DNA of 64,000 nt from an uncultured Opitutales bacterium (GCA_944389175.1 CALXLK010000005.1:10848-74847), one strand, 5' to 3'. Numbered from the stretch's first letter, positions 10,800 to 62,587 are shown. Notes: generated by a model from the letters alone, not told the origin. Numbers and translations are program-made.

Positions 10800-12362
10800 A
10801 TGGCAATATCCAAGGAAAAGATGCAGGAGCTGGCGGAGCGCAGGGAAACGGCGCTCAACGCCGGCGGCAAAGAAAAAATCGAGGCGCGCCACCAGAAGGG
10901 TTTGCTATCGGCCCGCGAAAGGCTGATGGCATTCTTTGACGAGGGCTCGTTTCAGGAATTCGGCATGCACGTGCAGCACGACTGCCACAACTTCGGCATG
11001 GAGAAGAAGAAGCTCCCCACCGACGGCGTCGTGTGCGGAACCGGGTTGGTAAACGGCCGTCCGGTTGCGGCCTTCAGCCAGGATTTCACGGTATCGGGCG
11101 GATCTCTCGGAGCAAACCACGCGAAGAAGATTGTCGATATAATGCAGTTTGCCGCAAAGACGGGCATGCCCGTAGTGGGCGTCAACGACAGCGGCGGCGC
11201 GCGCATTCAGGAAGGCGTCGCTTCGCTTTCCGGGTATGCGCAGATATTCCGCGCCAATGTCGAAAACTCGGGCGTAATTCCGCAGATTTCAATCATAGCA
11301 GGCCCCTGCGCGGGCGGAGCAGCCTACAGCCCCGCGCTCATGGACTTCATCATAATGACCGAAAAGAACTCCGACTTGTTCATATGCGGCCCCCAGGTCA
11401 TCAAAGCCGCCATGGGCGAAGAGGCAACGCTTGATATGTTTGCAACCGCAAACGCCCACGCGACGGTATCGGGCAACATACACTTGGTGGCCCGCGACGA
11501 CAAGCACGCGCTTGAGCTGGCGGCCAAGCTGCTTTCCTACCTGCCCTCGAACAACATGCAGGAGCCCCCGCACGATTTGTCGCAGCCGGTGGTGATGGAC
11601 TACGATCCCGTTCTAAACGACATTGTCCCGCCGGACTCAAACACCGGGTACAACGTAAAGGACGTCATCTCGAGGCTCGTCGACGGCGGAGAATTCTTCG
11701 AAATACAGGAGCACTTTGCAAAGAACGTAGTTGTGGGTTTTGCCAGGATTCAGGGAGTTGTCATAGGCATCATAGCCAACCAGCCCAACTTCAAGGCCGG
11801 CTGCCTCGACATAGACGCCTCCGACAAGGCCGCCAGGTTCATACTCACTTGCAACGCGTACAACATTCCCATGCTTACGCTCGTGGACGTTCCCGGCTTC
11901 ATGCCCGGCTTGGCGCAGGAGCGAGGCGGCATAATCCGCCACGGTGCCAAAGTTCTCTACGCATATGCGGCCTCGACGGTTCCGATGATTTCGCTTGTGA
12001 TGCGCAAAGCCTACGGCGGCGCGTACATTGCAATGTGCTGCAAGGATCTCGGCGCAGACATGTCGTTTGCGTGGCCGACGGCCGAAATAGCCGTTATGGG
12101 CGCCAAGGGCGCAATAAACGTCCTTTACGGAAAAGAGCTCAAGAAAATTGAGGATCCCAAAGAAAAGGCGGAAACGGCGGCAAAATACAGGGCAGAATAC
12201 AGCGCAAAGTTTGAAAGCCCCTACCAGGCGGCGGGTCTGGGCAAGGTTACAGACGTAATAGAGCCCGCGCAGTCGCGCGGAGTGCTGGCGATGGCCTTTA
12301 GGGCTACGCTTTCAAAGCGCGCCGTCACGACGCCCAAGAAAAACGGCAACATGCCCGTCTAA
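10800..12362 (+). CDS. mmdA: methylmalonyl-CoA decarboxylase alpha subunit / carboxyltransferase (PccB-12S family)
   Basis: 520 aa. Carboxyltransferase motifs NDSGGARIQEGV and VDVPGFMPG. Operon context with BCCP and the Na+-pump beta subunit. Confidence 0.92.
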   Translation: MAISKEKMQELAERRETALNAGGKEKIEARHQKGLLSARERLMAFFDEGSFQEFGMHVQHDCHNFGMEKKKLPTDGVVCGTGLVNGRPVAAFSQDFTVSGGSLGANHAKKIVDIMQFAAKTGMPVVGVNDSGGARIQEGVASLSGYAQIFRANVENSGVIPQISIIAGPCAGGAAYSPALMDFIIMTEKNSDLFICGPQVIKAAMGEEATLDMFATANAHATVSGNIHLVARDDKHALELAAKLLSYLPSNNMQEPPHDLSQPVVMDYDPVLNDIVPPDSNTGYNVKDVISRLVDGGEFFEIQEHFAKNVVVGFARIQGVVIGIIANQPNFKAGCLDIDASDKAARFILTCNAYNIPMLTLVDVPGFMPGLAQERGGIIRHGAKVLYAYAASTVPMISLVMRKAYGGAYIAMCCKDLGADMSFAWPTAEIAVMGAKGAINVLYGKELKKIEDPKEKAETAAKYRAEYSAKFESPYQAAGLGKVTDVIEPAQSRGVLAMAFRATLSKRAVTTPKKNGNMPV

Positions 12363-12379
12363 AAAAGGAAGGCAATACG

Positions 12380-12820
12380 ATGCACTTAATGGCAGTTATT
12401 CCGCTAAGGCCGGAGATGGAAGACATAATATCGTTTTCCATGTCGGGCTTTCTACTGGTGATGATTGTCTTGGCGCTATTGTCGACGATGACGTCGATAA
12501 TAGGCCAGGCATTCATCTTTGCCGACAAGGCAAAGGCCGCGAAAGCCAAAGCAAAGGCCTCCCCTGCGGAAGCGGCGCCCAAGGGGGTATCCGACGACCA
12601 CGCCAGGGTAATAGCCGCGGCAGTGGCCTCGGTCATGCCCGAATTGGAAAACGACTCCGCCAAACTCGTCGCGGTGCTTTCGGCCGCAGCGGCCGTGGCC
12701 CTCGACGAAGAATGCAGGGTTGTAAACTACAAGCCAATATCGGGAGAATTTTCCAAGTTCGGCAGGGAGCAAATCTTTGCCTCGCACAATTACACACCAA
12801 GCAAATTTAACAACAAATAA
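12380..12820 (+). CDS. OadG/MmdD-family small membrane subunit of the Na+-translocating decarboxylase
   Basis: Single N-terminal TM (FSMSGFLLVMIVLALLSTM) followed by an Ala/Lys-rich linker. AGGAAGG RBS 8 nt upstream. Position between mmdA and the BCCP gene matches mmd/oad operons. Confidence 0.6.
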   Translation: MHLMAVIPLRPEMEDIISFSMSGFLLVMIVLALLSTMTSIIGQAFIFADKAKAAKAKAKASPAEAAPKGVSDDHARVIAAAVASVMPELENDSAKLVAVLSAAAAVALDEECRVVNYKPISGEFSKFGREQIFASHNYTPSKFNNK

Positions 12821-12839
12821 CGGATAGGTAAAAATATTT

Positions 12840-13232
12840 ATGAAAAAATTACGCATTACAGTTGACGGTAAAACGTACGAAGTTGAAGTGGAAATTCTCG
12901 GTTCGAGAATTTCGTCGGTAGCCCCTGTTGCTCCCGCTGTTGCAGCGCCGGCTCCGGTGGTAGCCCCGGCGGCTCCGGCTCCGGCGGCAAAGCCCGCAGT
13001 GGCGGCGGCCAAGGCCCAGGCAGGCGACGTGGCATGCCCCCTGGCGGCGACGATTGTCAACGTTGCAGTTAAGGAAGGCCAGCAGGTTAAGGCGGGCGAT
13101 CTCTTGGTGATGCTTGAGGCCATGAAGATGAACACACCCGTAAACGCAGTCGTCGACGGCACCGTCACGAAAGTCTACGTATCGGCCGGCCAGAGCGTAC
13201 AGGAAGGCGAACCGCTGGTAGCTCTCTCATAA
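12840..13232 (+). CDS. mmdC: biotin carboxyl carrier protein subunit
   Basis: C-terminal biotinyl domain with EAMKM biotinylation motif ([10 protein letters not shown]), preceded by an Ala/Pro-rich linker. Confidence 0.9.
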
Positions 13233-13271
13233 TCGCCGCCGATATTTCGGCGCGCCAACTTAACGCAAACC

Positions 13272-14852
13272 ATGTTAAACAGTTTAAAAGAACTATTCTT
13301 CGAGACGGGTTTTTGCTACGTAGATTGGCGAATGCTTGTTATGTGGATGGTGGTCGCGGTTCTGATGTATTTGGCCGTGTACCGCCAGTACGAACCGCTG
13401 CTGCTGGTTCCCATAGCATTCGGCGCGCTAATAGCAAATCTCCCGACCGAAGGAGTAATAAACAAGCCCGCCACGTACCTGATTTCGCCTGTCGACGGCA
13501 TAGTCAACCAGGTGTACGTAAAAGAGGGCGATTCGGCTTTCGTGCCGCGAATGGTCAAGCAAATTCCCACGAGGATTGCAGACGTAGTCAAGACTGCGGA
13601 GTCGGCGCAGGCCGACATTCAGTCGTACTTGAACTTCGTCGAGGATATGACCTCCAAGAGCGCGCGCGAAGACGTCTTTAAAAAGGCAAAGGGCGTTCCG
13701 GACCTCATGGCCTTCGTCTCCCCGGGGACATTCACTCCGAAGAGGGACGCCGAAAAGGCTATTCAGGGGAAGAAGTTCCTAGTCAAATTCAAAGGCAAGG
13801 AAACGGTGGTTGACGCCTCTTCCATGTTCGTGTGGGCCCAGTCGTCGGGCAAGGTAACCGAAGTCGCGGCGAAAGCCGGAGACAAGGTTCTGACCGGCAC
13901 AAAGATGATAGACGTCTACAGCGCGCGAACCGGAGGCCTGTACTACTATCTGCAGATGGGCGTTCTTCTGGAATTGTTCCCGCCGCTAATATTCTTGGGC
14001 GTGGGAGCGTTGACAGACTTCGGGCCGCTAATTGCAAATCCTAAGACGCTGCTTCTAGGCGGCGCGGCGCAGTTTGGCGTATTTGCCACGCTCATGGGGG
14101 CTCTGGCTCTTGGATTCACCTCGCCCGAAGCAGCATCGATAGGCATTATCGGAGGCGCCGACGGCCCGACGTCTATATTCACGACGAACAAACTGGCCCC
14201 GCACCTGCTGGCGCCAATAGCGGTGGCAGCTTACAGCTATATGGCGCTCGTCCCGATTATCCAGCCGCCGCTTATGCGAATGCTGACGACAATGAAAGAG
14301 CGCAAGATAAAGATGAAGAGCCTGCGTAAAGTCACAAAGCTTGAAAAGTTGATCTTTGCGCTTGTAGTGGCCATAGCCTGCATACTTCTGACGCCCGACG
14401 TATCGGCGCTTATCTGCATGCTGATGCTGGGCAACTTCCTCAAGGAAAGCGGAGTCTGCGATAGGCTCACAAAAGCCGCACAGAACGAGGTAATCAACGT
14501 GGTGACCATCTTCCTTGGAACGTCGGTTGGCATAACCATGACAGGCGACAGGTTCATCAGAACGGAGACGATTTTCATTCTGCTTCTCGGCGTTGTGGCC
14601 TTTGGCTTCTCGACGATAGCAGGTGTTCTGATGGCAAAGGGAATGAACTTGTTCCTCAAGGAAAAGATAAATCCGCTAATCGGCTCGGCCGGCGTTTCGG
14701 CGGTGCCGATGGCAGCCCGCGTGTCGCAGGTTGAGGGCGCGAAAGCCGACCCGTCAAACTTCCTGCTCATGCACGCCATGGGCCCGAATGTTGCCGGTGT
14801 TATAGGCACGGCGCTGGTGGCGGGTTACTTCATAGCAACCCTGGGGCATTAA
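13272..14852 (+). CDS. mmdB: Na+-translocating decarboxylase beta subunit (OadB/MmdB/GcdB family) with enlarged loop
   Basis: Family motifs [57 protein letters not shown] and [15 protein letters not shown]. At 526 aa it is longer than the 433-aa Klebsiella OadB as I recall it. Confidence 0.9.
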
Positions 14853-17015: not shown

Positions 17016-18944
17016 CTAATACGCCCTTACCTCGAATATGGAAGCGTATTCCGAGCCGTTGGTCGCAAGGCACTTTACCATAAGCGCCTTGGCCTCCGTC
17101 GCGTCAAAATCGGCTATTACCAATTTCTGGTAATTGCCGCGCACTTCCTTTAGCGTCTTTTCGGAACCGTCCGGCAAGACGGCGACTATGTCAAAATCGC
17201 GCAAAGTCTCGGGCTGTGGAGCGTGAATCATCGCCTTGACAAACGACACCTGGGAGGTCTGCGTTATCATCCTGCAGCCGGTATCCAAATTTAGGCGCAC
17301 CTGCGAAATGCAAACGGGCTTTTCCCACGAGAGCTCAAGAACGGGCTTCTCGTCGATGGGGGCAAGCCACTTGTTATCGTTGCGGTCCTTGAAATCATAC
17401 GCCACGCCGTTTAAGACGTTGGAAGCTGACGTGCCAAGCGCGGAAGAAACATTCGAGACAGCCTTTGCCTTGCGCGCCAAGTCGGCCTCGTCCTCATTTT
17501 TAAACCCGACGACGATATTGCCGTCTTTGATGAGCTTCTGGCGCAGGCGCGAAAGCGCGGCTGCGTCTTTGTCAAGCTGTCTCGCCGTCATGTTTTCTCT
17601 CGCGCACATCGCCGCCGCATTGCCGACGACCTCTCCGGCAAGAGCGCCGGTATTCATGACTCTTGTGGACGTGAAGGCTATGTGGCTTGTATTCATGTTG
17701 CGCCCGGCCATCATGAGATTGTCGATATCGCAGGAATACATCGTGCTGAAGGGCAGATTGTAAAACGGCGTCTTGCCCCCGTATATGGAGGGCTTGCCTT
17801 TGAAATAAAAACCGTCGGAGGGCTGGTCCTCCATGGGCCAGCCGACTGTTATTATTTGATCGGGCCTGTCCTTCCACTTGCCGTCTATGTCGTGCTGGGT
17901 AAAAATGTCGTAGCCCTTGATCCTGTTTGTGTCGCGGCGGGCCGGGAACATGGCGACAAAGTCGAGGTCGAGATTCTTAGTCTGCGGATACTTGCCGCTA
18001 TTTTTTAGATATCCCCAAACTCCCAACAATATCGAAAGCAACTCGCGGCGGATTATCTCGGTATCGTGGATTATATCAAGCTTGCCGCCGAAAGATATAA
18101 ACCAATAGCCGTAGAGAAAATCGCTGGGCTCCCTAAACTTGAGGTTTTCCTCGGTTATCTTGTGCGCCCACGACGGCGGGGTAAACTTTACCTGGCAACC
18201 GGCGTCGTGTGAGGTAAACATCATCGAACAGCAGAGGTGGTCGCCCTTGGTAAACACGCCCGCCAGACTCTCGCCGTACTTTTCCGGACCGTCGCGCCCC
18301 GACATCACCTCGGCGCCGGCCTCGAGCCCAAGGCGGCAGTCGCCGGTGCAATCTATGAACTGCTTCGCCGAAATTATATAGTTTGTCAAAGACATATCGC
18401 AGCGGGCGTAGGCGCGCGTTATCTTTCTGTCGCAGACGTCGGCCCCGTAGACGGTGGTGTCCAGCAGCAATGTTATGTTTTCCTCGCAGCGGATTTTGTC
18501 GTAAAGCATCACGTCCCATACGACCCAGCTCAACTGCGTGTTTTCCACTATGTTTTTAAGCTTCAGCTCCTCGAGTATTCCGCTTTCCCTAAAGCCCACC
18601 TTGTTCGAGTCTATGCCGAGGGCGTGCATTCTGACTTCCGAGCTCGAATTGCCGCCCAGGCGCGACCTGTTCTGCACGAGCACGACCTTAGCGCCGCTCC
18701 TGGCCGCCGCCAAAGACGCGCAAACCCCCGTAAGCCCGCCGCCTGCCACGAGAACGTCGCAGTCCAACTTTACATTCTGCATAGTGCTCTGCCCGAACGT
18801 AGGTTCGCAGCCGCGCTTCTGGCCCGCAGCGTCCGCCTTTTTACAGCACTCCCCAACGCCCGCCGAAGGCTCGTCGACGCTTACCATCAGCGAGTATCCC
18901 AGCAGCCCCATAGCCGCAGTGCTTAAAAATTCCCTGTCTTTCAT
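17016..18944 (-). CDS. FAD-dependent oxidoreductase with C-terminal beta-sandwich-like domain (paralog of 55075-57009)
   Basis: Rossmann dinucleotide motif VLVAGGGLTGVCASLAAARSGAKVVLVQNRSRLGGN. Collinear similarity to the 55-kb paralog over the full length. The N-terminal signal-like region has DR instead of RR. Confidence 0.8.
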   Translation of the reverse strand: MKDREFLSTAAMGLLGYSLMVSVDEPSAGVGECCKKADAAGQKRGCEPTFGQSTMQNVKLDCDVLVAGGGLTGVCASLAAARSGAKVVLVQNRSRLGGNSSSEVRMHALGIDSNKVGFRESGILEELKLKNIVENTQLSWVVWDVMLYDKIRCEENITLLLDTTVYGADVCDRKITRAYARCDMSLTNYIISAKQFIDCTGDCRLGLEAGAEVMSGRDGPEKYGESLAGVFTKGDHLCCSMMFTSHDAGCQVKFTPPSWAHKITEENLKFREPSDFLYGYWFISFGGKLDIIHDTEIIRRELLSILLGVWGYLKNSGKYPQTKNLDLDFVAMFPARRDTNRIKGYDIFTQHDIDGKWKDRPDQIITVGWPMEDQPSDGFYFKGKPSIYGGKTPFYNLPFSTMYSCDIDNLMMAGRNMNTSHIAFTSTRVMNTGALAGEVVGNAAAMCARENMTARQLDKDAAALSRLRQKLIKDGNIVVGFKNEDEADLARKAKAVSNVSSALGTSASNVLNGVAYDFKDRNDNKWLAPIDEKPVLELSWEKPVCISQVRLNLDTGCRMITQTSQVSFVKAMIHAPQPETLRDFDIVAVLPDGSEKTLKEVRGNYQKLVIADFDATEAKALMVKCLATNGSEYASIFEVRAY

Positions 18945-21548: not shown

Positions 21549-23495
<1,947 letters not shown>

Positions 23496-24398: not shown

Positions 24399-26873
24399 AT
24401 GGATAGGGAAAAATTAAGAAAATTTATGTTTGCGGGGCTTATGGCAGTCTCCGGCGCGCTAGTAGTCGGGGCTGAGCTGACGCCGGTATCCTTCGACAAG
24501 GTCAAATTGCAGGATACATTCTGGCTTGAAAGAATGAAGGCGCAAAAGAATGTGCTCATACCGCTTGCGTTTGAAAAAACGGCCGTGGGGCTTGAAAATC
24601 TGCGCATAGCAGGGCGCGTGCAAAAAGCCGACACTAACATTCGCTCGGGGCGTTCTTTTTTCGACACGTCCGATCTTTACAAAGTCATAGAGGGCGCCGC
24701 ATACCTGCTAAAGATAGAGCGCGACGATGCCCTGGAGGCGAAAATAGACTCGATATCCAAAGACATAGCCTCTGCAATGGAGCCCGACGGGTATCTCTAC
24801 CCGCCGATAACGGGCAAAGCATATGACAAAGCGCGCTACGGCGACATAGCCTTCGGGCACGAGCTCTACAACGTGGGGCACCTATACGAGGCCGCTGTGG
24901 CCTACTATCTTGCCACCGGCAAGCGCAACTTGCTCGACATCGCCGAAAAAAACGCCAGGCATGTCAACAAAGCTTTTTTCATAGGCGGCGACGAGAAGTA
25001 CAACGGCGGCAAGCCGGTCAACCAGGCGCCAGGGCACCAAGAAATAGAACTTGCGCTTGTAAAGCTCTATAAGGCCACGGGCGATAGGCTATACCTCGAT
25101 ATGGCAAAGCGTTTTTTGGATATCCGGGCCCTCACATACGTGGCCCCGCCAAAGAACTCGCAACCGCCCAAATACGCGAGGCTACTTCGGCCCGAATACG
25201 CCCAGCAGGACAAGCCCGTCAGGGAATTGAGGGAAGTTAGCGGGCACTGTGTGAGAGCATGCTACATGTACGCGGCGATGGCCGACGTCGGCTCTGCCGC
25301 GGGCGATCCGACTTTCAAAACCGCCCTTGAAAGCCTGTGGGCCGACATAGTTGACACCCGCATGCACATAACAGGCGGCATAGGAGCCGTCCGCGAAATA
25401 GAGGGCTTCGGCCCGAAATACGTTTTGCCAAACGAGACAGCCTACGATGAAACGTGCGCGGCAATAGCAAACATGTTTTTCAATTTTAGAATGTTTCTGC
25501 TTGAGCTCGACGCCAAGTATATGGACGTCGCCGAGGTGGCGCTTCTAAACAATGTACTGGCCGGGGTAAATCTCGCAGGCGACAGGTTTTTCTACGACAA
25601 TCCGCTGGAATGTTATTCGACAAAAGGGCGCTCAAAATGGTTCGGCTGCGCGTGTTGCCCGACAAACCTTGCGCGCGTAATACCGCAGGTGCCGGGCATG
25701 ATGTACGCCTACAGCGCCGACGAGGCGTATCTGTGCCTCTACGCCTCGAGCCAAACGGAAATACCGCTTGAATTGGGCAAAGTAAGAATCGAACAAAAGT
25801 CGGACTACCCTCTCGACGGCAAGGTTCAAATAAGGGTGTACCCGCAAAAAGGCGAATCAAAATTCGCTTTGATGCTTAGAATTCCGAGCTGGGCCACAAA
25901 ACAATTCGTGCCCGGAAAGCTCTACTATTACACAGGCAAAGAGCCCCGGCAGAAATGGTCGCTTAAGATAAACGGGGAAGAGATAAGTGATGTCAAAATG
26001 AGCAAGGGCTTCGCCCGCATAGAAAGGACGTGGCGCTCAGGCGACACCGCAGAGCTCAACCTGCCCATGCCCGTGCGTTTCAACAAGGCCGTAAACGAGG
26101 TGGAGGCCGACAGGGGGCGCGTTGCCCTGACCCGCGGGCCGCTCGTGCTATGCGCCGAGGGCATAGACAACGAAGCGCCACCAAATGCAATAGCCCTGTG
26201 CGATTTTTCCCAAACTCCCAACGTAGAGAGAATAAAGAAAGGCCCGCTAAAAGGAATCCCCAGAGCGAGCCTCGAGAAGGCAAATTACATAGACGCCAAA
26301 GGCAGATGGCTGCCGACGAAATGTTCTCTCATACCCTACTATGCGTGGAATAACCGCGGAAATTATCCGATGAACGTATGGTTTGCCGACAGCAGGCAGT
26401 CACTAGAAAAAAATGTGAATTTAAGCCGCGTTTACAAAAGCGAGGAAATAGTCGGGGAAATTTCCGCCCCGAGGGGAGACGGCGACATAAAATCTACGGT
26501 CAAAAAATCTACCCCGCTATCATCAAAAGATATTGAAAGCGGGGGGTGGATATGCGGGGAAAACGCTTCGAAGATAGTCGTCGAATACGAGTTTAAACGC
26601 GTAATAAACCTGTGGGAAATCGGCATATACTGGGCCGACGGTGTCAACGGCGCGAAAGCGCCCCGCAGTTGGACTGCCCTCTACCGCGAACCCGAGACGA
26701 AAACGTGGTACGCCTACCCGAAATATTTGACCGAGGACTACGGCACGCTGAAAGACCAGCTCAACACCGTAAAGTCGGCGCGCAATTTTATATCAACCGA
26801 CGCCGTTAGAATAGTAATAACTCCCCAAGACGGCACCCGCGCCGGCATTCTGCGCGCCAGATTTTCCGAATAG
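24399..26873 (+). CDS. secreted glycoside hydrolase family 127-like (beta-L-arabinofuranosidase/DUF1680) with C-terminal beta-sandwich domain
   Basis: Signal peptide. YDETCAAIANM (Glu-x-Cys) and GCACCPTNLARV (Cys-Cys) match the Zn/Cys active-site residues described for GH127 HypBA1. AGGAGG RBS upstream. Confidence 0.85.
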   Translation: MDREKLRKFMFAGLMAVSGALVVGAELTPVSFDKVKLQDTFWLERMKAQKNVLIPLAFEKTAVGLENLRIAGRVQKADTNIRSGRSFFDTSDLYKVIEGAAYLLKIERDDALEAKIDSISKDIASAMEPDGYLYPPITGKAYDKARYGDIAFGHELYNVGHLYEAAVAYYLATGKRNLLDIAEKNARHVNKAFFIGGDEKYNGGKPVNQAPGHQEIELALVKLYKATGDRLYLDMAKRFLDIRALTYVAPPKNSQPPKYARLLRPEYAQQDKPVRELREVSGHCVRACYMYAAMADVGSAAGDPTFKTALESLWADIVDTRMHITGGIGAVREIEGFGPKYVLPNETAYDETCAAIANMFFNFRMFLLELDAKYMDVAEVALLNNVLAGVNLAGDRFFYDNPLECYSTKGRSKWFGCACCPTNLARVIPQVPGMMYAYSADEAYLCLYASSQTEIPLELGKVRIEQKSDYPLDGKVQIRVYPQKGESKFALMLRIPSWATKQFVPGKLYYYTGKEPRQKWSLKINGEEISDVKMSKGFARIERTWRSGDTAELNLPMPVRFNKAVNEVEADRGRVALTRGPLVLCAEGIDNEAPPNAIALCDFSQTPNVERIKKGPLKGIPRASLEKANYIDAKGRWLPTKCSLIPYYAWNNRGNYPMNVWFADSRQSLEKNVNLSRVYKSEEIVGEISAPRGDGDIKSTVKKSTPLSSKDIESGGWICGENASKIVVEYEFKRVINLWEIGIYWADGVNGAKAPRSWTALYREPETKTWYAYPKYLTEDYGTLKDQLNTVKSARNFISTDAVRIVITPQDGTRAGILRARFSE

Positions 26874-27059: not shown

Positions 27060-27160
27060 GGTCGGGCCCTATGCAATTTGCGAAGTCGCCAACCCCGCCA
27101 GGTTCGGAAGAAAGCAACGGTAACGTTCTTCCAGATGTGCCGTAGGTAGCCTGACCCCCT
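27060..27160 (+). ncRNA. ffs: signal recognition particle RNA (small 4.5S type)
   Basis: About 100-nt imperfect hairpin. The closing helix GGTCGGGC/GCCTGACC pairs 27060-27067 with 27149-27156. The apical motif CCGCCAGGTTC-GGAA-GAAAGCAACGG has the GGAA tetraloop at 27106-27109, three closing pairs, and the same non-canonical set as the E. coli domain IV symmetric loop (G.A, G.G, A.C, C.A from 5'-CAGG / 3'-AGCA). A T tract follows. Confidence 0.72.
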
Positions 27161-55047: not shown

Positions 55048-55074
55048 TTCTTGTCAACATTATTGAAGGACGGC

Positions 55075-57009
55075 ATGCAAAGGAGGAAATTTCTAACATC
55101 TATTTCGGGCGCAATGGCGGGGTACGGTCTGTTTGTATCGGCTCCGCAAACAATTGGGGCGGCCGAAATAAAATACAAACGCGGAGGCGCAAAAGCTTCA
55201 AAGGCCGCAGGGGGCTCGTACGAGGAGGATCCGCTAATGGATAAGACCGAGCTCGAATGCGATCTTTTCATATGCGGGGGCGGCCTTGCCGGGGTATGCG
55301 CTGCGATAGCGGCAGCCAGGGGCGGCGCGAAAGTCGTCTTGATGCAGGATCGCTCGAGGCTCGGTGGAAACGCAAGTTCTGAAATCAAAATGCATCCCCT
55401 GGGCGTAAACTCAAAGGCTGTCGGCTGGAGAGAGGGCGGAATTCTCGAAGAATTGGAAATAGAAAACGCCCTGCGCAACCCGACCTTTTCGTGGGAGATT
55501 TGGGATTTGCTACTCTACGACAAATGCATTTGCCAGCCAAACATAAGGCTTTTTCTGGATACCGACGTATACAAAGCCGAAGTAAAAGACGGCAATATAA
55601 CATGCGCATGGGCGCGCTCCGACTCCACCAGAAACGTATACAAAGTAAAGGCGAAAATTTACGCCGATTGCTCCGGAGACAGCCGCATGGGGCTGTCGGC
55701 GGGAGCCAACTACTTTAGCGGGCGGGAGGGCTCAAAACTCTACGGAGAGTCGCTTGCCGACTTCGACCCGATAGGAACCAGGCAGGGATCCTCGCTCATG
55801 TTCACCTCTAAGATGTGCGATTTTCCCGTCCCCTTCAAAGCCCCCTCATGGGCAAAAAAAATAACGCCCGAGATGCTGAAATACCGCAGGGTTGGAGATA
55901 TTTTTTACGGAATGTGGTGGATAGAGCTCGGAGGCGTCTACGACGCGATAAAAGACAACGAGCAGCTTCGCTTTGAGCTTTTGTCGATAGCGCTTGGAGT
56001 TTGGGACCACGTAAAAAACAGCGGGCAGTACAAGGGTGTTGAGAACGTCGCCCTCGATACGATAGGCATGCTGCCGGGGCGGCGCGAAACTTACCGCCTC
56101 GAGGGTAACTACGTATTGAAACAGCAGGATATAGAGGGATTGTGGAGGCGCTTTCCCGACGCCGTAAGCGTAGGCGGCTGGACTATGGACGACCACCCCG
56201 CGGAGGGCTTTTACGCCTTCGACAGGAAACCCTGCAGGCAGGCAAAAATACCCGGGCCCTACAATATTCCCTACAGGTGCATATGCTCTAAAAACATCGG
56301 CAATCTAATGATGGCGGGCAGGAACATATCGTGTTCGCACGTGGCGTTTACATCGACGAGGGTCATGGGCACGTGCGCATCTTTGGGCCAGGCTCTTGGC
56401 ACGGCGGCTGCAATATGCCTAAGCGCGGGAGTTTCGCCGAAACAGCTCGGCGAAAATCAAAAGCTTGTAAATAGGCTCCAGCAGAATCTCCTTCGCGACG
56501 GGTTGGCCATACTCAACGTTAAAAACAACGATGAAAACGACGTTGCCCGATTTGCAGAAATAACTGCCTCTGAGTCCATAGGCGGTTCGGCCGCCGAAAA
56601 CGTGGTATCGGGAGTCGTCCTCGACAAGCCGGGCGAAAACAAAAACAGGTGGGTCGCCTCGGCGGCGAATAAGCCGTATTTGAACTTTGAATTTAAGCAG
56701 CCCCAAAGAATAAAAAACATACATGTGGTCTTCGACGCCGGCTGCTATGTCCTGACGCAGACCGGACAGCGCAACTTGCTCAGAAACATTCCCCGCGGCA
56801 GGCAGCCCGACATCGTCAAGTCGTTTAATGCGACGGCCGAACTTGCCGACGGATCGAAAAAAACGCTCGTGCGCGAAACGGACAACGCCGCAAAAATAGT
56901 CGACTACAAAATTCCGGGAGACCTGTACAAGTCAATACGTTTCGATTTTTTGCAAACCAACGGTTCTGAGTCGGTTATAGTCAAGGAAATCAGGCTTGAG
57001 ATAGCTTGA
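55075..57009 (+). CDS. Tat-exported FAD-dependent oxidoreductase with C-terminal beta-sandwich-like domain
   Basis: Twin-arginine signal MQRRKFLTSISGAMAGYGLFVSAPQTIGA. Rossmann motif LFICGGGLAGVCAAIAAARGGAKVVLMQDRSRLGGN. Full-length paralog of 17016-18944. Confidence 0.85.
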   Translation: MQRRKFLTSISGAMAGYGLFVSAPQTIGAAEIKYKRGGAKASKAAGGSYEEDPLMDKTELECDLFICGGGLAGVCAAIAAARGGAKVVLMQDRSRLGGNASSEIKMHPLGVNSKAVGWREGGILEELEIENALRNPTFSWEIWDLLLYDKCICQPNIRLFLDTDVYKAEVKDGNITCAWARSDSTRNVYKVKAKIYADCSGDSRMGLSAGANYFSGREGSKLYGESLADFDPIGTRQGSSLMFTSKMCDFPVPFKAPSWAKKITPEMLKYRRVGDIFYGMWWIELGGVYDAIKDNEQLRFELLSIALGVWDHVKNSGQYKGVENVALDTIGMLPGRRETYRLEGNYVLKQQDIEGLWRRFPDAVSVGGWTMDDHPAEGFYAFDRKPCRQAKIPGPYNIPYRCICSKNIGNLMMAGRNISCSHVAFTSTRVMGTCASLGQALGTAAAICLSAGVSPKQLGENQKLVNRLQQNLLRDGLAILNVKNNDENDVARFAEITASESIGGSAAENVVSGVVLDKPGENKNRWVASAANKPYLNFEFKQPQRIKNIHVVFDAGCYVLTQTGQRNLLRNIPRGRQPDIVKSFNATAELADGSKKTLVRETDNAAKIVDYKIPGDLYKSIRFDFLQTNGSESVIVKEIRLEIA

Positions 57010-57041: not shown

Positions 57042-57070
57042 TTGACATGCAAAAAAGCATGTGTTCTAAT
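57042..57070 (+). promoter_or_regulatory. candidate promoter with embedded palindrome upstream of the U32-like gene
   Basis: TTGACA (57042-57047), 17-nt spacer, TCTAAT (57065-57070). The spacer holds the perfect inverted repeat ACATGC-A6-GCATGT (57045-57062). The GCATGT half-site recurs at 57081-57086. Confidence 0.5.
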
Positions 57071-57096
57071 CCACAAAAGCGCATGTCTGGGCATAG

Positions 57097-58095
57097 ATGA
57101 AATTCACCGTAGGATACCAAGCAAACGACGACTTGAAAGAGGCCGTTATCGAGAACCGGGGGAAAATTACAGAAATATACTTCCCCTGGGGCGGCTTTAC
57201 GAGCGGGCGCGGAGTGGTAGTTGATAAATTTGAGCAACGCAAAATGGAGGAGGATCTCGACGAGTACGTCGCCGAAGGCCTCGGGGCGAATTTGCTGCTA
57301 AACGGCAACTGCTACGGGCGCCATGCGCAATCGAGGGCGTTTTTCAACAGCATTGGCGACACTGTAGAAGAGCTCGTCGGGCGCTACAAGCTCGGCTCTG
57401 TGACGACGACTTCGCCGCTGATAGCCAAATTTTTGAAGGTTAATTTTCCCTCGATAGAGGTTCGCGCCTCGATAAACATGGAGATAGGCGCCATAGACGG
57501 CTTTGAGTACATAGCCGAATGGTTTGACAGCTATTATCTCAGGCGCGAGTACAACTATTATCTTTCAAAGCTCAAGGCCGCGAAAAAGTGGTGCGAAGAG
57601 AACGGCAAAAAACTCTATCTGCTTGCAAACAGCGGCTGTATGAATTTCTGCTCGGCGCACAATTTCCACGACAACCTTGTGGCGCACCAGCACGAGATAG
57701 CCGAAATGGACAACGCCTACGATTTTCGCGGTATATGCCACGGATTTTTCTCGAAGCAGCAGAACAAGAAGTCGATGTTGCGCCACTCGAATTTTATACG
57801 GCCCGAGGATGTGGACCTGTACGAAGGTCTGTGCGAGGGCATGAAGCTTGCGACGCGCACGAACCGGTCGCCCGGCGATGTACTCAGGGCGTACTGCCGG
57901 GGGCATTACAGCGCGAACATACTCGATCTTACCGAGCCGAGTTTTGCCGGGCATCTGTACCCGTCGGTGATAGAGAACGGCAAGATAAGCCCAGAGTACG
58001 CCAGGCACAGGCTCTCATGCGATAAAGATTGCCGCAGATGCTCGTTCTGCGAGGACGTCCAGGAGAAAGCGACGGTGAATCTCGAGCAGACCTGA
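57097..58095 (+). CDS. peptidase-U32-like TIM-barrel Fe-S protein (UbiU/UbiV/TrhP/RlhA-family-like; tentative)
   Basis: LKEAVIENRGKITEIYFPWGG resembles the U32 N-terminus (..LKAAIENGADAVY.G). LYLLANSGCMNFCSAHNFH resembles the U32 Cys-containing signature region. There is an additional C-terminal CX3CX2CX2C (CDKDCRRCSFC). Confidence 0.5.
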   Translation: MKFTVGYQANDDLKEAVIENRGKITEIYFPWGGFTSGRGVVVDKFEQRKMEEDLDEYVAEGLGANLLLNGNCYGRHAQSRAFFNSIGDTVEELVGRYKLGSVTTTSPLIAKFLKVNFPSIEVRASINMEIGAIDGFEYIAEWFDSYYLRREYNYYLSKLKAAKKWCEENGKKLYLLANSGCMNFCSAHNFHDNLVAHQHEIAEMDNAYDFRGICHGFFSKQQNKKSMLRHSNFIRPEDVDLYEGLCEGMKLATRTNRSPGDVLRAYCRGHYSANILDLTEPSFAGHLYPSVIENGKISPEYARHRLSCDKDCRRCSFCEDVQEKATVNLEQT

Positions 58096-58228
58096 CGCTC
58101 ATTTCCCCCGCAAAACAGTGGACAAAACGCGGGAGGGTCGAAAATAAAAATTTCAAAAACCAAGCTGACTTATCGGTCGTGTTGGCGGAGAAAGAAACAA
58201 CCCAACTTGTATATAGGAGGACAGATAA

Positions 58229-59311
58229 ATGTTAACAAGCCAAATGGTAAAGAAGGCAGCTCTTGCAGCGGGCGCCGACGCGTGCGGCATAAGCGATATG
58301 AATCGATTTGAGACCGCGCCGAAGGAACTCGATCCCAGGGAGCTGTTTCCTGAAGCCAAATCAGTAATAGGTATGCTCTTCCGCATTCCGAGAGGATTGC
58401 AGAGGGGCATTGAGGAGGGTACGCAGTTTTACCAGTATCCCTCCATGGCGTACGGCGGCATAAACGAAATATCGGCGCCGGCCGTGCTTTATAAAGTGGG
58501 CAAGCTCATAGAGGACCACGGCTACGAGGCGTTTGCCTACCGCAATACCGGCGCGCGCGGCTGCGTATCCGACATGGACGGCAAGCCCGGCAAGACGGTA
58601 TCGCCGGAAGAGCACGCTGAGATAACAGAGCTCATAAACAGCGGCGCTCCGCTGTGGAAGCACGACTACAACCGTTCCGCGATGGCGCGTCCGGCGCGTC
58701 CGGGGCAGGTTCCGCCAGACTTGCTCATACACTTCCGCCTTGTCGGCGTGGCGTGCGGTCTCGGCGAAATAGGGTGGTCGAAGATGTTCCTAAGCCCCCA
58801 GTTTGGCTCGAGGCAGCGCCTGGCGTTCATATTCACCGACGCCGAGCTTGAGCCGGATCCGCTGTACTCGGGGAAGCCCCTGTGCCGCCGTTGCTATGCG
58901 TGCGTGAGGGAATGTCCGGGACACTGCATAAGCCAGACGGAAAGCATAAAGGTTACAGTAGGCGGCAAAGTTTGCGAATGGGGCAAGCTCGACGAATGGA
59001 AGTGCTACGCCTTCTATACGCACGGCGGCCCGAAGTACAACCCGTTTGTCCCGAAGGAAGTCTGGGACAACGACCCCAACGGCGACCTCGATTTGCTCAA
59101 GGGCAAGAAAGCCGCCAATGTCGAGGAATGCTTAAAGGCCTATGGAAATCTGGAAAAGTATTTCCCGTCGTGGGTGGGCTACAACATGGCAAAATGCGGC
59201 GGCTGCCTGCGCGGCTGCGAAAGCATGCTGGAAAAGAAGGGCGGCACGCTCTACGGCAAGTTTGAACATCCGCTGCGCCACAGAGCAAAACCCTGGGCAA
59301 TGGATAGATAG
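58229..59311 (+). CDS. QueG/reductive-dehalogenase-superfamily-like Fe-S protein, paralog 1 (360 aa)
   Basis: QueG-like N-terminus MVKKAALAAGADACGISD. Core ACGLGEIGWSKMFLSPQFGSRQRLAFIFTDAELEPDP, then LCRRCYACVRECPGHCIS (CxxCxxCxxxCP). Distal Cys: WKCYAFY and CGGCLRGC. AGGAGG RBS. Confidence 0.75.
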   Translation: MLTSQMVKKAALAAGADACGISDMNRFETAPKELDPRELFPEAKSVIGMLFRIPRGLQRGIEEGTQFYQYPSMAYGGINEISAPAVLYKVGKLIEDHGYEAFAYRNTGARGCVSDMDGKPGKTVSPEEHAEITELINSGAPLWKHDYNRSAMARPARPGQVPPDLLIHFRLVGVACGLGEIGWSKMFLSPQFGSRQRLAFIFTDAELEPDPLYSGKPLCRRCYACVRECPGHCISQTESIKVTVGGKVCEWGKLDEWKCYAFYTHGGPKYNPFVPKEVWDNDPNGDLDLLKGKKAANVEECLKAYGNLEKYFPSWVGYNMAKCGGCLRGCESMLEKKGGTLYGKFEHPLRHRAKPWAMDR

Positions 59312-59319
59312 GAGGCACC

Positions 59320-60228
59320 ATGATAAACGCACAAATCATAAAGCAAAAAGCTATTGAGTTCGGTGCCGTAGCCTGCGGTATCGGAGATATAAAATATTTT
59401 GAAGGCACAAATCCGCAGAGGGATCCCAAATCGATACTTCCGTGGGCCAAGTGTGTAATCGGCTTTGCATTCCGCGTCCCCAAGGCGCTCTACCGCGTTA
59501 TGGACGAAGGCAAGCAGTTCTTCAACTACACGCAGCTGGGCACGAAATTCATAGACGAGGAAATGTCGGAAGTATTCCTGTTGAGGATGAGCTCGCTCAT
59601 TGAAGACGAGGGGTACGACGCCTGTCTGCAAAGAAACGTCTCCAACTTGAGAATCAAGGGCGACAAGACGACGAACCCGGAACTTGGCGACACCTACGAG
59701 CTCATACACGTGCAGCCGGTTGAGCCCGGCAAGCCCGCGCCGGAAATCATAATGGACTTCAACCAGGCCGCGCAAATTTGCGGTTTGGGCGCGGCTGGAA
59801 AGAACGGCCATGTAATTATGCCCAAGTTTGGCCCGTACGTCCGTTTCGTATTCATCGTCACCGACGCTCCGCTCGAATGCGACGAGCCCTTCAAGGGCAA
59901 TCTCTGCGACGGTTGCGACGAGTGCGTCAAGGCCTGCCCCGGGCACGCCATAGCCGAGGACGGCACTATAAACACATGGCAGTGCGCCGTGTATTACCGC
60001 GGCGCTCACAAGTCTAATCCGTTCATGACCGACGACTTCCTCAAGGGCGATCCCGAGAGGGAGGCAATCATCAACGGCGACAAGGTTTTCGACAGAGAAT
60101 CGGCTCGCCAGATATACAAGAAGATAGACTTTCTGCCCTGCCATCCGACCGGATACTCGCCGTGTCTGTGCGGCAAGAAGTGCGATACAGTCTGCTATAA
60201 ACACCTAAAGGAAAAGAACGTTTTATGA
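59320..60228 (+). CDS. QueG/reductive-dehalogenase-superfamily-like Fe-S protein, paralog 2 (302 aa)
   Basis: IIKQKAIEFGAVACGIGD, ICGLGAAGKNGHVIMPKFGPYVRFVFIVTDAPLECDEP, LCDGCDECVKACPGHAIAEDGTINTWQCAVYY, and the distal cluster CLCGKKCDTVCY. AGGAGG RBS. Confidence 0.78.
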   Translation: MINAQIIKQKAIEFGAVACGIGDIKYFEGTNPQRDPKSILPWAKCVIGFAFRVPKALYRVMDEGKQFFNYTQLGTKFIDEEMSEVFLLRMSSLIEDEGYDACLQRNVSNLRIKGDKTTNPELGDTYELIHVQPVEPGKPAPEIIMDFNQAAQICGLGAAGKNGHVIMPKFGPYVRFVFIVTDAPLECDEPFKGNLCDGCDECVKACPGHAIAEDGTINTWQCAVYYRGAHKSNPFMTDDFLKGDPEREAIINGDKVFDRESARQIYKKIDFLPCHPTGYSPCLCGKKCDTVCYKHLKEKNVL

Positions 60229-61166
60229 GTACTTTGAAGGAAAAGATAATCGAAGAAATCAAGAGTGCCGGTGCGGACATAGCCGTATTTGGCAATGCCG
60301 ACCGCTTTCGCGACAAGAACGTGAAGTTTTTGTCGCCGAATGCCAAGACGGTTATCTGCATAGCCGCGCGTTCGCTCAGAGGCAGCCGCAGGGGTGTCGA
60401 GGAGGGCACGTCGTACCACCACTTCACGACGGTCGGCCTGGAAACGCTCGAGGAGACGATTCTGCCCATGGCGCTTATGAGGGTCTGCAACGTGCTTGAA
60501 GACGCCGGCTTTGAGGCTCTTCCCCAGCGCAGGAACCAGCTTGTAATGTCGGAGGACGACAGCACGAACCCCGAGGTCAGCTACAAAAAGATCTACCGCG
60601 GGAAGAAGGCCGAGCACACGCTCGACTTTGAAGAGTGCGCAGTCGACGCCGGGCTTGGCGAGCGCGGCCTGCACGGGACGATTCTCACCGACGAATACGG
60701 CCCGTTCCAGCGCTATGCCTTTGTAATAACAGATGCGGAAATAGAGCCCGATCCCGTGGTGAAGCCCCACTTGTGCGACAAGTGCGGGGAGTGCGTCAAA
60801 GCCTGCCCCGGACACGCCATCGCCGAAGACGGCACGCTCAACCGCTGGCAGTGCGCCGCCTACTACGTCGGCGCAAACGGCACGAAGAACCCCTTCATGC
60901 CCGACTACGCCTTCGAGAACGAGCCCGACCGCATGGATATCATTCACGGCAAGGTCTCTCTGACGCCCGAGCGCGCCAGAGAGATCATCGACCAGGTGAA
61001 CTTCTATCCGCCCATACGCCACGCGTATTGCTCGAGCATATGCGGCAAAGCCTGCGACACGGCCTGCTACATTCACCTCGAGAAGAAGGGCGTTTTGTCC
61101 AAGAAGTTTGAAACGCCTTTCAGGAAACGTCCTGAATGGTTTATTCCCTTCGAAGACAAGAAATAG
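60225..61166 (+). CDS. QueG/reductive-dehalogenase-superfamily-like Fe-S protein, paralog 3 (313 aa)
   Basis: IIEEIKSAGADIAVFGN, DAGLGERGLHGTILTDEYGPFQRYAFVITDAEIEPDP, LCDKCGECVKACPGHAIAEDGTLNRWQCAAYY, and the distal cluster CSSICGKACDTACY. 4-nt ATGA overlap with paralog 2. Confidence 0.78.
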   Translation: MSTLKEKIIEEIKSAGADIAVFGNADRFRDKNVKFLSPNAKTVICIAARSLRGSRRGVEEGTSYHHFTTVGLETLEETILPMALMRVCNVLEDAGFEALPQRRNQLVMSEDDSTNPEVSYKKIYRGKKAEHTLDFEECAVDAGLGERGLHGTILTDEYGPFQRYAFVITDAEIEPDPVVKPHLCDKCGECVKACPGHAIAEDGTLNRWQCAAYYVGANGTKNPFMPDYAFENEPDRMDIIHGKVSLTPERAREIIDQVNFYPPIRHAYCSSICGKACDTACYIHLEKKGVLSKKFETPFRKRPEWFIPFEDKK

Positions 61167-61176
61167 CATAAATTGC

Positions 61177-61216
61177 AGGACGCCGCGCGGCATTATTGTG
61201 CGGCGTCCTTTATTTT
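61177..61216 (+). terminator. strong intrinsic terminator after the third Fe-S paralog
   Basis: Perfect 10-bp stem AGGACGCCGC/GCGGCGTCCT with a 13-nt loop, followed by TTATTTT. Confidence 0.8.
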
Positions 61217-61273
61217 GATTTGGCAAATTTCACATCGTAGCGCATACGCATATTACACCGACGAAAGGAAGAA

Positions 61274-62587
61274 ATGGACGATTTAACTAACTTCGCAAGC
61301 ACACTTAGCAGCGCGCAGAGAAAGAAGTACCGAATCTTGGCGTACGCCTCAACATGGTTCGGCAATTTCTCCGACGTGATGATAGACAGCAGCGCCATAC
61401 TCATTCTATACTTTACCATGCTTGGCAGTTCGAGCTCGATGGTGATGCTGACGACGAGCTTAACGGGATTGACGTCCATGTTTCTTTTTATCCCGTCGGC
61501 GGGAATAGTAAACAAGTTCGGGCCGAAAAAGGTTATAGAATACTCGTGTTATTTAGGCACGATTTCGCTCTTGTTTGTGGCCGTAAGCCCGTTTTTTGGC
61601 GAGACGCTAGACCAATACATAGCGTTTGCCGGCTGCCTGTTCTACTGTATTTCCAAGGCAATCTGGCCGCCAGCTTGGTATCCGATTCTCAACAGCATAC
61701 TCCTGCCTAAAGAGCGCGCCGGCTTTTTCGGTTTTCTCAGGTTCAGCTACTTTATTCTGACTGGTTCAGTGTTTTGGCTTATCGGCCACTTCATGGGAGA
61801 GAAACCGCCAGTATGGTTTCTTCAGCTAGTAATCGGCATAATAGGCGTCATGGTAATGGGCAGGCACTTCTGCCTGGTAAGAATCCCGTTGCCTGAAATA
61901 AAATCGGAATCGACGAATATAAAAGAGTCGCTCATTGCGACAATAAAAAATTCGTCGCTTGTGGGCTTTTCGGTGTATATATGCATTCTGCTGTTTGCGT
62001 TTTCGCCGGTGCTGCCGTTGGCTCTAAAATACTTAAAAAGCGGCCTGAATTTGGGCGACGGCTTCGTGCAGGAAGTTTCGGCTTTCGGCATTGCCGGCAT
62101 GGTATTGGGCTATCTTTTGTACAGCACTATTTTAAGGCTCATCGGAATGAGAGCCCTTCAGCTGTCCGTCCACGCGCTTTACTTTGTCGTGCCGGTCGGA
62201 ATTTTCTTCTTTGGCGCAAACCATATAGCGGTGACCCTGCTGTACTTCGTGGGAAGTTTCGCGTATGCATGCTTCTGGTGCATGATGTCGCAGGAAATTT
62301 TGGCGCTGGCAAATCCCAAAAGCTTCGCGATGGGAAGCGCCTTTGTCCAAACATACCAGATGATAGGCATGGGGCTAGGCCGCGTTGCCTCGTCTGTCCT
62401 GCTATGCGGAATGCTCGCGGTTACATGGGACTGGAAAGTAGATTTGGGCTTTATTGACATTACACTTACCATCAGCCAGTACCAAACAATATTCCTTTTC
62501 TGCGGCGCGATGAGCCTGCTTTCGGCCATATTTATAGTATGCCTGCCAAGCATCGTCCCGCAGCACGACGATTACTACAACCCGTAA
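61274..62587 (+). CDS. MFS-type permease (GPH/MelB-like), 12 predicted TM
   Basis: 437 aa, hydrophobic throughout with about 12 helices. A PKERAGFFGFLRF loop follows TM4-5, as in MFS/GPH symporters. GGAAG RBS. Confidence 0.82.
   Translation: MDDLTNFASTLSSAQRKKYRILAYASTWFGNFSDVMIDSSAILILYFTMLGSSSSMVMLTTSLTGLTSMFLFIPSAGIVNKFGPKKVIEYSCYLGTISLLFVAVSPFFGETLDQYIAFAGCLFYCISKAIWPPAWYPILNSILLPKERAGFFGFLRFSYFILTGSVFWLIGHFMGEKPPVWFLQLVIGIIGVMVMGRHFCLVRIPLPEIKSESTNIKESLIATIKNSSLVGFSVYICILLFAFSPVLPLALKYLKSGLNLGDGFVQEVSAFGIAGMVLGYLLYSTILRLIGMRALQLSVHALYFVVPVGIFFFGANHIAVTLLYFVGSFAYACFWCMMSQEILALANPKSFAMGSAFVQTYQMIGMGLGRVASSVLLCGMLAVTWDWKVDLGFIDITLTISQYQTIFLFCGAMSLLSAIFIVCLPSIVPQHDDYYNP

Follow-up and report, generated by a model that had tools for sequence, protein, structure and literature searches.

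To our knowledge, only three functions are known for B12 enzymes of the QueG/RdhA/CblC type and only three for the iron-sulfur (Fe-S) proteins of the U32 family, and none of them lies in carbohydrate metabolism. Those U32 members that have been characterised are Fe-S hydroxylases dependent on a redox partner (PMC11574389, PMC10990095), and the U32 oxidases bind their [4Fe-4S] cluster through a four-cysteine motif, CX6CX15CX3C (PMC11574389). The characterised oxidases of this family and QueG, the epoxyqueuosine reductase whose catalytic motif is DYH (PMC4646009), all serve biosynthesis or the modification of RNA (PMC11574389, PMC4646009). Here, we describe a four-gene cassette found in a 64,000-nucleotide stretch from an uncultured Opitutales bacterium (GCA_944389175.1, CALXLK010000005.1:10848-74847; the whole stretch is hereafter called the window), which encodes a U32-like triosephosphate isomerase (TIM)-barrel protein followed by three paralogs, A, B and C, of the QueG/reductive dehalogenase (RdhA) fold. 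No published description of such a block was found in the full-text literature, in line with the initial annotation of the locus, which knew of no described pathway combining the two families. Public annotations of the proteins read 'hypothetical protein', '4Fe-4S binding protein' or 'ferredoxin', and here and there 'epoxyqueuosine reductase' or 'U32 family peptidase'. All the components belong, as divergent members, to known superfamilies; the novelty lies in their obligatory combination, in the triplication of the QueG-like set and in the carbohydrate setting.

QueG, a class III cobalamin enzyme (PDB entries 5d6s and 5d08), is the best structural and sequence match of the three paralogs. In both, a ferredoxin domain comes after an N-terminal alpha/beta cobalamin-binding fold, and both show the core motif AGLGxxGxxxxxxxxxxGxxxR and the same eight-cysteine logic, namely CX2CX2CX3C, then a single cysteine, then CX2-3CX3C. 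In each paralog, this two-[4Fe-4S] pattern (PMC5175355) was 98–100% conserved among 54 genomes, and the collinear motifs quoted in the initial annotation were found in the paralogs and conserved across orthologues. With the RdhA proteins (PceA, 4uqu; the reductive dehalogenase (RDH) complex, 8q4h; NpRdhA, 4ras) the paralogs share the superfamily fold and the layout of the redox chain.

Profile, PDB-sequence, structure and hhalign matches all placed the paralogs in the QueG/RdhA superfamily, as had been proposed from the sequence, and no full-length match above cut-off to either family was obtained. The NCBIfam QueG and RDH profiles matched nothing but the core that takes in the first Fe-S motif and the residues directly ahead of it. 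In particular, the QueG equivalog TIGR00276 scored 31 bits for A, 56 for B and 49 for C, against a cut-off of 200 bits (model positions ~135–211 of 337), and the RdhA model TIGR02486 scored 44–46 bits against a cut-off of 160 (E 1e-11 to 1e-12), covering ~70–105 of its 314 positions. In the Pfam scan, only Fer4-type motifs were detected, and PF13486 had no match. Searches against PDB sequences retrieved QueG (E 1e-10), the RDH complex 8q4h (E 1.8e-14 with a profile) and PceA, and the best-scoring stretch against RdhA and QueG lay in the cobalamin domain, directly ahead of the ferredoxin motif. When aligned globally to E. coli QueG by hhalign, the B family reached a probability of 97.9% over QueG residues 8–267, and the C family covered residues 7–290 only. 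The AlphaFold (AF2) model of paralog C (predicted local distance difference test score, pLDDT, 89.9) matched by Foldseek, at E ≤ 1e-3, only QueG, RdhA (PceA, the RDH complex and NpRdhA) and MMACHC; CblC and CblD came next (E 1.4e-3 to 3.8e-3), and no other folds were matched. The model shows the fold only, and by it the paralogs are predicted to carry, ahead of the ferredoxin domain, an N-terminal cobalamin-binding fold like that of CblC.

Unlike QueG, the paralogs have an insert of ~60 residues between the fifth and sixth cysteines, lack the HEAT/tRNA-binding domain, do not conserve DYH, score far under the family threshold and occur in carbohydrate loci as three obligatorily linked proteins accompanied by a U32 barrel. 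They terminate 10–35 residues past the last Fe-S cysteine, and by hhalign coverage the C-terminal HEAT tRNA-binding domain of QueG is absent (domain limits from PMC5175355 and PMC4646009). Unlike RdhA, they show no twin-arginine translocation (Tat) signal (no RR motif in the N-termini MLTSQMVKK..., MINAQIIKQ... and MSTLKEKII...), no RdhB anchor (no small membrane-protein gene within the operon, be it that of the window or those of the relatives), no fused reductase module, no membership of PF13486 or TIGR02486 and no organohalide context. The absence of QueG's C-terminal domain, the Tat signal and RdhB had been noted before and was confirmed. As a family assignment, both bona fide QueG and classical RdhA were excluded by the features tested (sub-cut-off scores; no HEAT domain or DYH; no Tat signal or RdhB).

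Paralog A is ~35% identical to B and C, and the same subunit is 70–75% identical between loci; judged by their sequences, the three paralogs represent ancient, separate and non-interchangeable orthogroups. Across the same 54 genomes, mean pairwise identity was 77% for A, 65% for B, 61% for C and 52% for the U32-like protein, which makes A the most constrained subunit. This paralog has 123 invariant columns, an insert of ~14 residues after the first cysteine motif and, in the N-terminal domain, a longer one. The N-terminal ~180 residues, which form the cobalamin-binding fold, are kept and strongly conserved in each paralog.

No sequence match in Pfam, NCBIfam or the PDB was obtained for the 332-residue U32-like protein. 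Its AF2 model, built from a 45-sequence alignment (mean pLDDT 93.5), had as best Foldseek match 5d88, the U32 peptidase Mk0906 (E 1.2e-10; template modelling (TM) score 0.72, normalised to the target), followed by generic TIM barrels at E ≥ 5e-5. Weak matches to PF01136 (Peptidase_U32; best E 3.8e-4) were observed in 21 of the 45 family members, the window protein not being one of them, and in an exhaustive profile search the distant members P0466 (25.3 bits) and P0504 (35.7 bits) exceeded the PF01136 cut-off of 22.4 bits. Since 5d88 is the top structural match and the family grades into PF01136, we assign the protein, on the basis of its model, to the U32 superfamily as a far-diverged TIM barrel. 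In this, the U32-like call of the initial annotation was borne out, and the predicted structures returned the folds expected, U32 for this protein and QueG/RdhA/CblC for paralog C. By hhalign, the family did not align significantly with UbiU or UbiV (E 0.065 and 0.12), and its profile reached only E 0.53 to 5d88 among PDB sequences.

The TIM-barrel fold is common to this protein, to the U32 oxidases UbiU/UbiV, TrhP and RlhA and to Mk0906. Its GC-x3-C segment is collinear with the U32 signature, invariant cysteines of the catalytic face immediately follow beta-strands, and one ligand candidate from the N-terminal strand recalls UbiV. C72, C181, C185 and C214 are 100% conserved; the first three lie, in the model, directly after beta-strands, which is the site of barrel active sites. 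Unlike the U32 oxidases, the protein has C72 ... C181-x3-C185-x28-C214 in place of CX6CX15CX3C, an extra C-terminal CX3CX2CX2C (C308-x3-C312-x2-C315-x2-C318, 98% conserved) and, as partners, three QueG-like proteins instead of a second U32 protein or UbiT. A C166-x14-C181-x3-C185 arrangement is present, but C166 is only 85% conserved. In none of 150 U32-like family representatives was a QueG-like domain found fused; those of greater length carry TPR, M50 or ATP-binding cassette (ABC) pieces.

The locus had been labelled an orphan; comparison with related genomes showed, on the contrary, that the U32-like gene and the A-B-C block co-occur widely. The order U32-like–A–B–C was found in about 70 of the 84 loci retrieved with the U32-like protein, most of the remainder being broken by contig ends or being permutations that keep A-B-C together. 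Similarly, the U32-like gene was present in 31 of the 33 loci retrieved with paralog C, a set taken from metagenome contigs with sufficient upstream DNA. Median intergenic gaps in the relatives were 14.5 nt between the U32-like gene and A, 12 nt between A and B and −4 nt between B and C, the B-C overlap being the modal arrangement. Comparison of the loci shows four genes that are co-inherited in a fixed order, with translational coupling. At least 575 cassette loci were confirmed among species-representative genomes, and clustering at 90% gave 3256 protein clusters for the U32-like protein, 2592 for A and 2036 for C. The nearest among the matches listed came from Candidatus Merdousia and Opitutales (78%), which makes a gut Opitutales-like verrucomicrobium the probable origin of the window; further carriers were Lentisphaeria/Victivallales, Planctomycetia and many Clostridia (Oscillospiraceae, Acutalibacteraceae, Christensenellaceae), and nearly all titled source genomes were metagenome-assembled genomes from gut, rumen or anaerobic digesters. 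Across the four phyla, A was 67–75% identical, and this patchy spread with high identity of A would fit a horizontally shared niche trait.

Neighbouring genes were called with profiles as anchors, with denominators of 84–85 cassette loci. Regulators of the AraC type were found near the cassette in 34 loci, mostly divergent upstream, and those of the LacI type in 16; one or the other adjoined the cassette in about 50 of 85. DUF5696 proteins, which are related to the glycoside hydrolase (GH) family GH129 alpha-N-acetylgalactosaminidase 5wzn (E 3e-19) and to GH101, were present near the cassette in 15 loci. Rarer neighbours comprised GH63/MGH1-like, GH78, GH28, GH65 and GH42-like proteins, carbohydrate-binding module family CBM9, acetyl-xylan esterase, xylose-isomerase-like barrels and Gfo/Idh/MocA dehydrogenases. 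About 14 of 85 loci had a major facilitator superfamily (MFS) permease gene on one side of the cassette or the other, and PF12831 flavoproteins stood beside it in only about six; the permease and the flavin adenine dinucleotide (FAD) oxidoreductase are thus variable accessories outside the core cassette. In 10 Clostridia loci, a Cupin_2 protein of 113–120 residues was inserted between A and B (Table 1), which could be a fifth subunit or a lineage-specific sugar isomerase or epimerase. A dehydratase-type glycyl radical enzyme and its activase adjoined the cassette in three loci, directly upstream of the AraC regulator in L039 and L042, where a Gfo/Idh/MocA gene accompanied them, and directly downstream of C in L028; this enzyme may act on the same substrate in a second, radical-based anaerobic step. 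The NCBIfam matches of the Gfo/Idh/MocA, xylose-isomerase-like and glycyl-radical neighbours were all sub-threshold.

This neighbourhood points to inducible carbohydrate-utilisation loci, that is, to carbohydrate catabolism. The initial annotation had suggested a nucleobase- or queuosine-like or halogenated substrate, which found no support, and the neighbourhood, with its sugar-type regulators, permeases and glycoside-hydrolase-like genes, is not one typical of nucleobase/queuosine salvage or organohalide respiration.

We propose that the four genes form one operon, which encodes a single cytoplasmic, oxygen-sensitive, multi-cluster oxidoreductase, probably cobamide-dependent, for the anaerobic catabolism of a carbohydrate-derived compound in gut and rumen, a reading to which we give a probability of roughly 0.5. 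In such an enzyme, A, B and C would form a heteromer in which low-potential electrons reach at least one base-off cobamide by way of up to six [4Fe-4S] clusters, and A would be the likely catalytic subunit, as it is by far the most constrained. The heteromer would perform a reductive step on a C-O (or C-X) bond, and the U32-like barrel could either hydroxylate or dehydrate the same substrate in a coupled, oxygen-independent step or act as a substrate-binding partner. In the window, the substrate would be imported via the adjacent MFS permease, and the Tat-exported flavoprotein encoded upstream may pre-oxidise it in the periplasm. We advance only tentatively, as a rather unlikely extension, that among the class III cobamide enzymes (QueG/RdhA/CblC-type) the cassette represents a fourth functional class, in which a heterotrimeric, cytoplasmic, sugar-acting reductase and a new U32-type Fe-S barrel, its obligatory partner, would together bring about an oxygen-independent C-O rearrangement or deoxygenation of a carbohydrate-derived compound, for example by a combination of hydroxylation and reductive dehydroxylation that is redox-neutral overall. 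We know of no oxygen-independent C-O chemistry of this kind in glycan catabolism.

Several observations weigh against the proposed cobamide-dependent oxidoreductase. The TM-scores of the C model to QueG and RdhA were modest (0.42–0.48), and DYH is not conserved in any paralog, aligning to G-G-I in A, K-F/Y-I in B and E-T-L in C in a region of low-confidence alignment, where the position of QueG Asp130/134 likewise aligns to His in B. The CX6CX15CX3C motif of the U32 oxidases (PMC11574389) is missing from the U32-like protein, which has CX3CX28C plus a distant cysteine. Neither a cobalamin riboswitch nor another Rfam family nor a B12 gene was found near the cassette in the window and seven relatives. 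No single family of glycoside hydrolases, nor any one pathway enzyme, stands beside every cassette, so that the neighbours do not single out a substrate, and AraC regulators and MFS permeases are not sugar-specific. Furthermore, cobamide binding by the paralogs would follow from the predicted fold alone, and physical association of the four proteins from synteny alone. In three loci (L049, L063 and L064), the U32-like gene occurred without an adjacent A-B-C block. It adjoined there an acetyl-xylan esterase, or GH65, HAD and two PHP-domain genes, or a Zn ABC transporter.

The main rival to this proposal takes the U32-like protein as the sole catalyst, an oxygen-independent hydroxylase of the UbiU/V, TrhP or RlhA type, and the paralogs as a dedicated poly-ferredoxin wire that has lost its cobamide and only supplies electrons to the catalyst or drains them from it. 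It would agree with the need of characterised U32 members for a redox partner (PMC11574389, PMC10990095), with the missing DYH motif of A, B and C, with the restriction of their Pfam matches to Fer4-type motifs and with the lack of a B12 riboswitch in the loci searched. A mere wire, however, hardly explains why the ~180 N-terminal residues of the cobalamin fold are kept, with so many invariant columns in A, nor why the top similarity to RdhA and QueG falls inside the cobalamin domain, ahead of the ferredoxin motif. The B12 chaperones CblC and CblD follow right after QueG and RdhA among the structural matches, and A is more constrained than the supposed catalyst, so that we regard this alternative as unlikely, albeit one to be taken seriously. 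Less likely again would be a biosynthetic role, in which the cassette modifies anaerobically, for example, a quinone, a cofactor, an RNA base or a cell-envelope sugar. The functions of the characterised U32 oxidases and of QueG lie in that direction (PMC11574389, PMC4646009), and in the window the cassette stands amid housekeeping genes (mnmE, riboflavin synthase, gyrAB); but the AraC and LacI regulators at about 50 of 85 loci, with recurring glycoside-hydrolase-like genes and permeases, are hallmarks of inducible catabolism, the patchy distribution over gut and rumen anaerobes of four phyla with 67–75% identity of A speaks for a horizontally shared niche trait, and the RNA-binding HEAT domain is absent.

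Two further alternatives retain the chemistry of the closest relatives. That the paralogs are cytoplasmic, catabolic reductive dehalogenases like NpRdhA or BhbA, acting on dietary or host organohalides, might be read from the partial TIGR02486 matches, from the sequence matches to PceA and the RDH complex and from those to PceA and NpRdhA by Foldseek. We consider it improbable, given that the TIGR02486 scores fall far below the cut-off over about a quarter to a third of the model, that PF13486, a Tat signal, RdhB and a fused reductase are all missing, that three obligatorily linked paralogs with a U32 barrel occur in no known dehalogenase system and that sugar-type regulators and genes resembling glycoside hydrolases make up the neighbourhood. 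The label 'epoxyqueuosine reductase', given by JGI to some homologues, and the partial TIGR00276 matches would suggest triplicated bona fide QueG enzymes. This is barely credible with scores of 31–56 bits against the 200-bit equivalog cut-off, an alignment to E. coli QueG that ends at about residue 267–290, short of the HEAT/tRNA-binding domain, a DYH motif that is not conserved and three distinct orthogroups always accompanied by a U32 barrel.

A function for the cassette would add an anaerobic chemistry to the breakdown of glycans or dietary compounds, and would give gut ecology a new cobamide-dependent trait and the U32 family a new activity. Thousands of cassette protein clusters exist in gut and rumen metagenomes, and four small soluble proteins in a clear inducible context make a clean target.

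With regard to the layout of the locus (Table 1), the open reading frames (ORFs), the 133-nt spacer, the AGGAGG sites, the 4-nt overlap, the 10-bp terminator and the Tat-type FAD protein described in the initial annotation were all verified in the sequence. The promoter it had proposed, containing a palindrome, stood in part: TTGACA is kept at equal distance from the ATG in five Opitutales/Verrucomicrobia relatives (L005, L006, L007, L008 and L088), but a strict consensus scan did not call the site, because its −10 box lacks A at position 2, and the overlapping palindrome ACATGCaaaaaaGCATGT is not conserved, being absent upstream of the cassette in all related loci searched. The spacer between the U32-like gene and A is unusually long, about 10 times the median of 14.5 nt in the relatives, and neither an Rfam family nor a terminator was found in it. 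The flavoprotein has a twin-arginine N-terminus, MQRRKFL, and its start codon is probably the ATG at 55075; a weak DUF7402-like region lies at its C-terminus.

Table 1. Positions of the cassette, its signals and other features of the window, counted from the first nucleotide of the stretch, together with the related loci that carry an insert between A and B.
Feature	Position	Strand	Details
Accessory Tat-signal FAD-dependent oxidoreductase	55051-57009	+	652 aa; PF12831 FAD_oxidored, E 8e-78
Promoter-like element	57042-57070	+	TTGACA, 17 nt, TCTAAT; overlaps 6+6 palindrome at 57045-57062
U32-like Fe-S TIM-barrel protein	57097-58095	+	332 aa
Spacer, U32-like gene to A	58096-58228		133 nt
Ribosome-binding site of A	58216-58221		AGGAGG
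Paralog A, QueG/RdhA-fold	58229-59311	+	360 aa
Ribosome-binding site of B	59311-59316		AGGAGG
Paralog B, QueG/RdhA-fold	59320-60228	+	302 aa
Paralog C, QueG/RdhA-fold	60225-61166	+	313 aa; start overlaps B stop by 4 nt
Intrinsic terminator closing the four-gene operon	61177-61209	+	perfect 10-bp arms AGGACGCCGC/GCGGCGTCCT, then T run
Accessory MFS permease	61274-62587	+	437 aa; Pfam MFS_1, E 3e-10
ORF antisense to paralogs	59251-60204	-	317 aa
ORF antisense to paralogs	60195-61226	-	343 aa
Second PF12831 FAD-dependent oxidoreductase	17016-18944	-	642 aa; E 2.5e-58
GH127 beta-L-arabinofuranosidase-like gene	24399-26873	+	E 1e-90
Bacterial small signal recognition particle (SRP) RNA	27060-27159	+	RF00169, 65.6 bits
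Methylmalonyl-CoA carboxyltransferase and Na+-translocating decarboxylase beta subunit, then fumarate reductase/succinate dehydrogenase flavoprotein	10800-14852, 21549-23495	+	
Loci with Cupin_2 insert (A/B)			L033, L036, L039, L042, L046, L048, L056, L071, L074, L082

Opposite paralogs B and C, two antisense ORFs outsize the true genes, so that length-based ORF picking selects them, as it does in about 20 related loci. These long ORFs are a gene-caller trap and not evidence of antisense genes.

The cassette of the window is set within a housekeeping region that includes mnmE, riboflavin synthase, gyrB/gyrA and ispG. A second PF12831 oxidoreductase is encoded 38 kb upstream, and the genome seems to have an expanded set of this family. 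The small SRP RNA was the sole Rfam family found in the window. Amid housekeeping genes there is also a GH127 beta-L-arabinofuranosidase-like gene, which fits a plant-glycan-degrading gut verrucomicrobium, and the genes for methylmalonyl-CoA carboxyltransferase, the decarboxylase beta subunit and the fumarate reductase/succinate dehydrogenase flavoprotein suggest that the host ferments by a succinate/propionate-type route.

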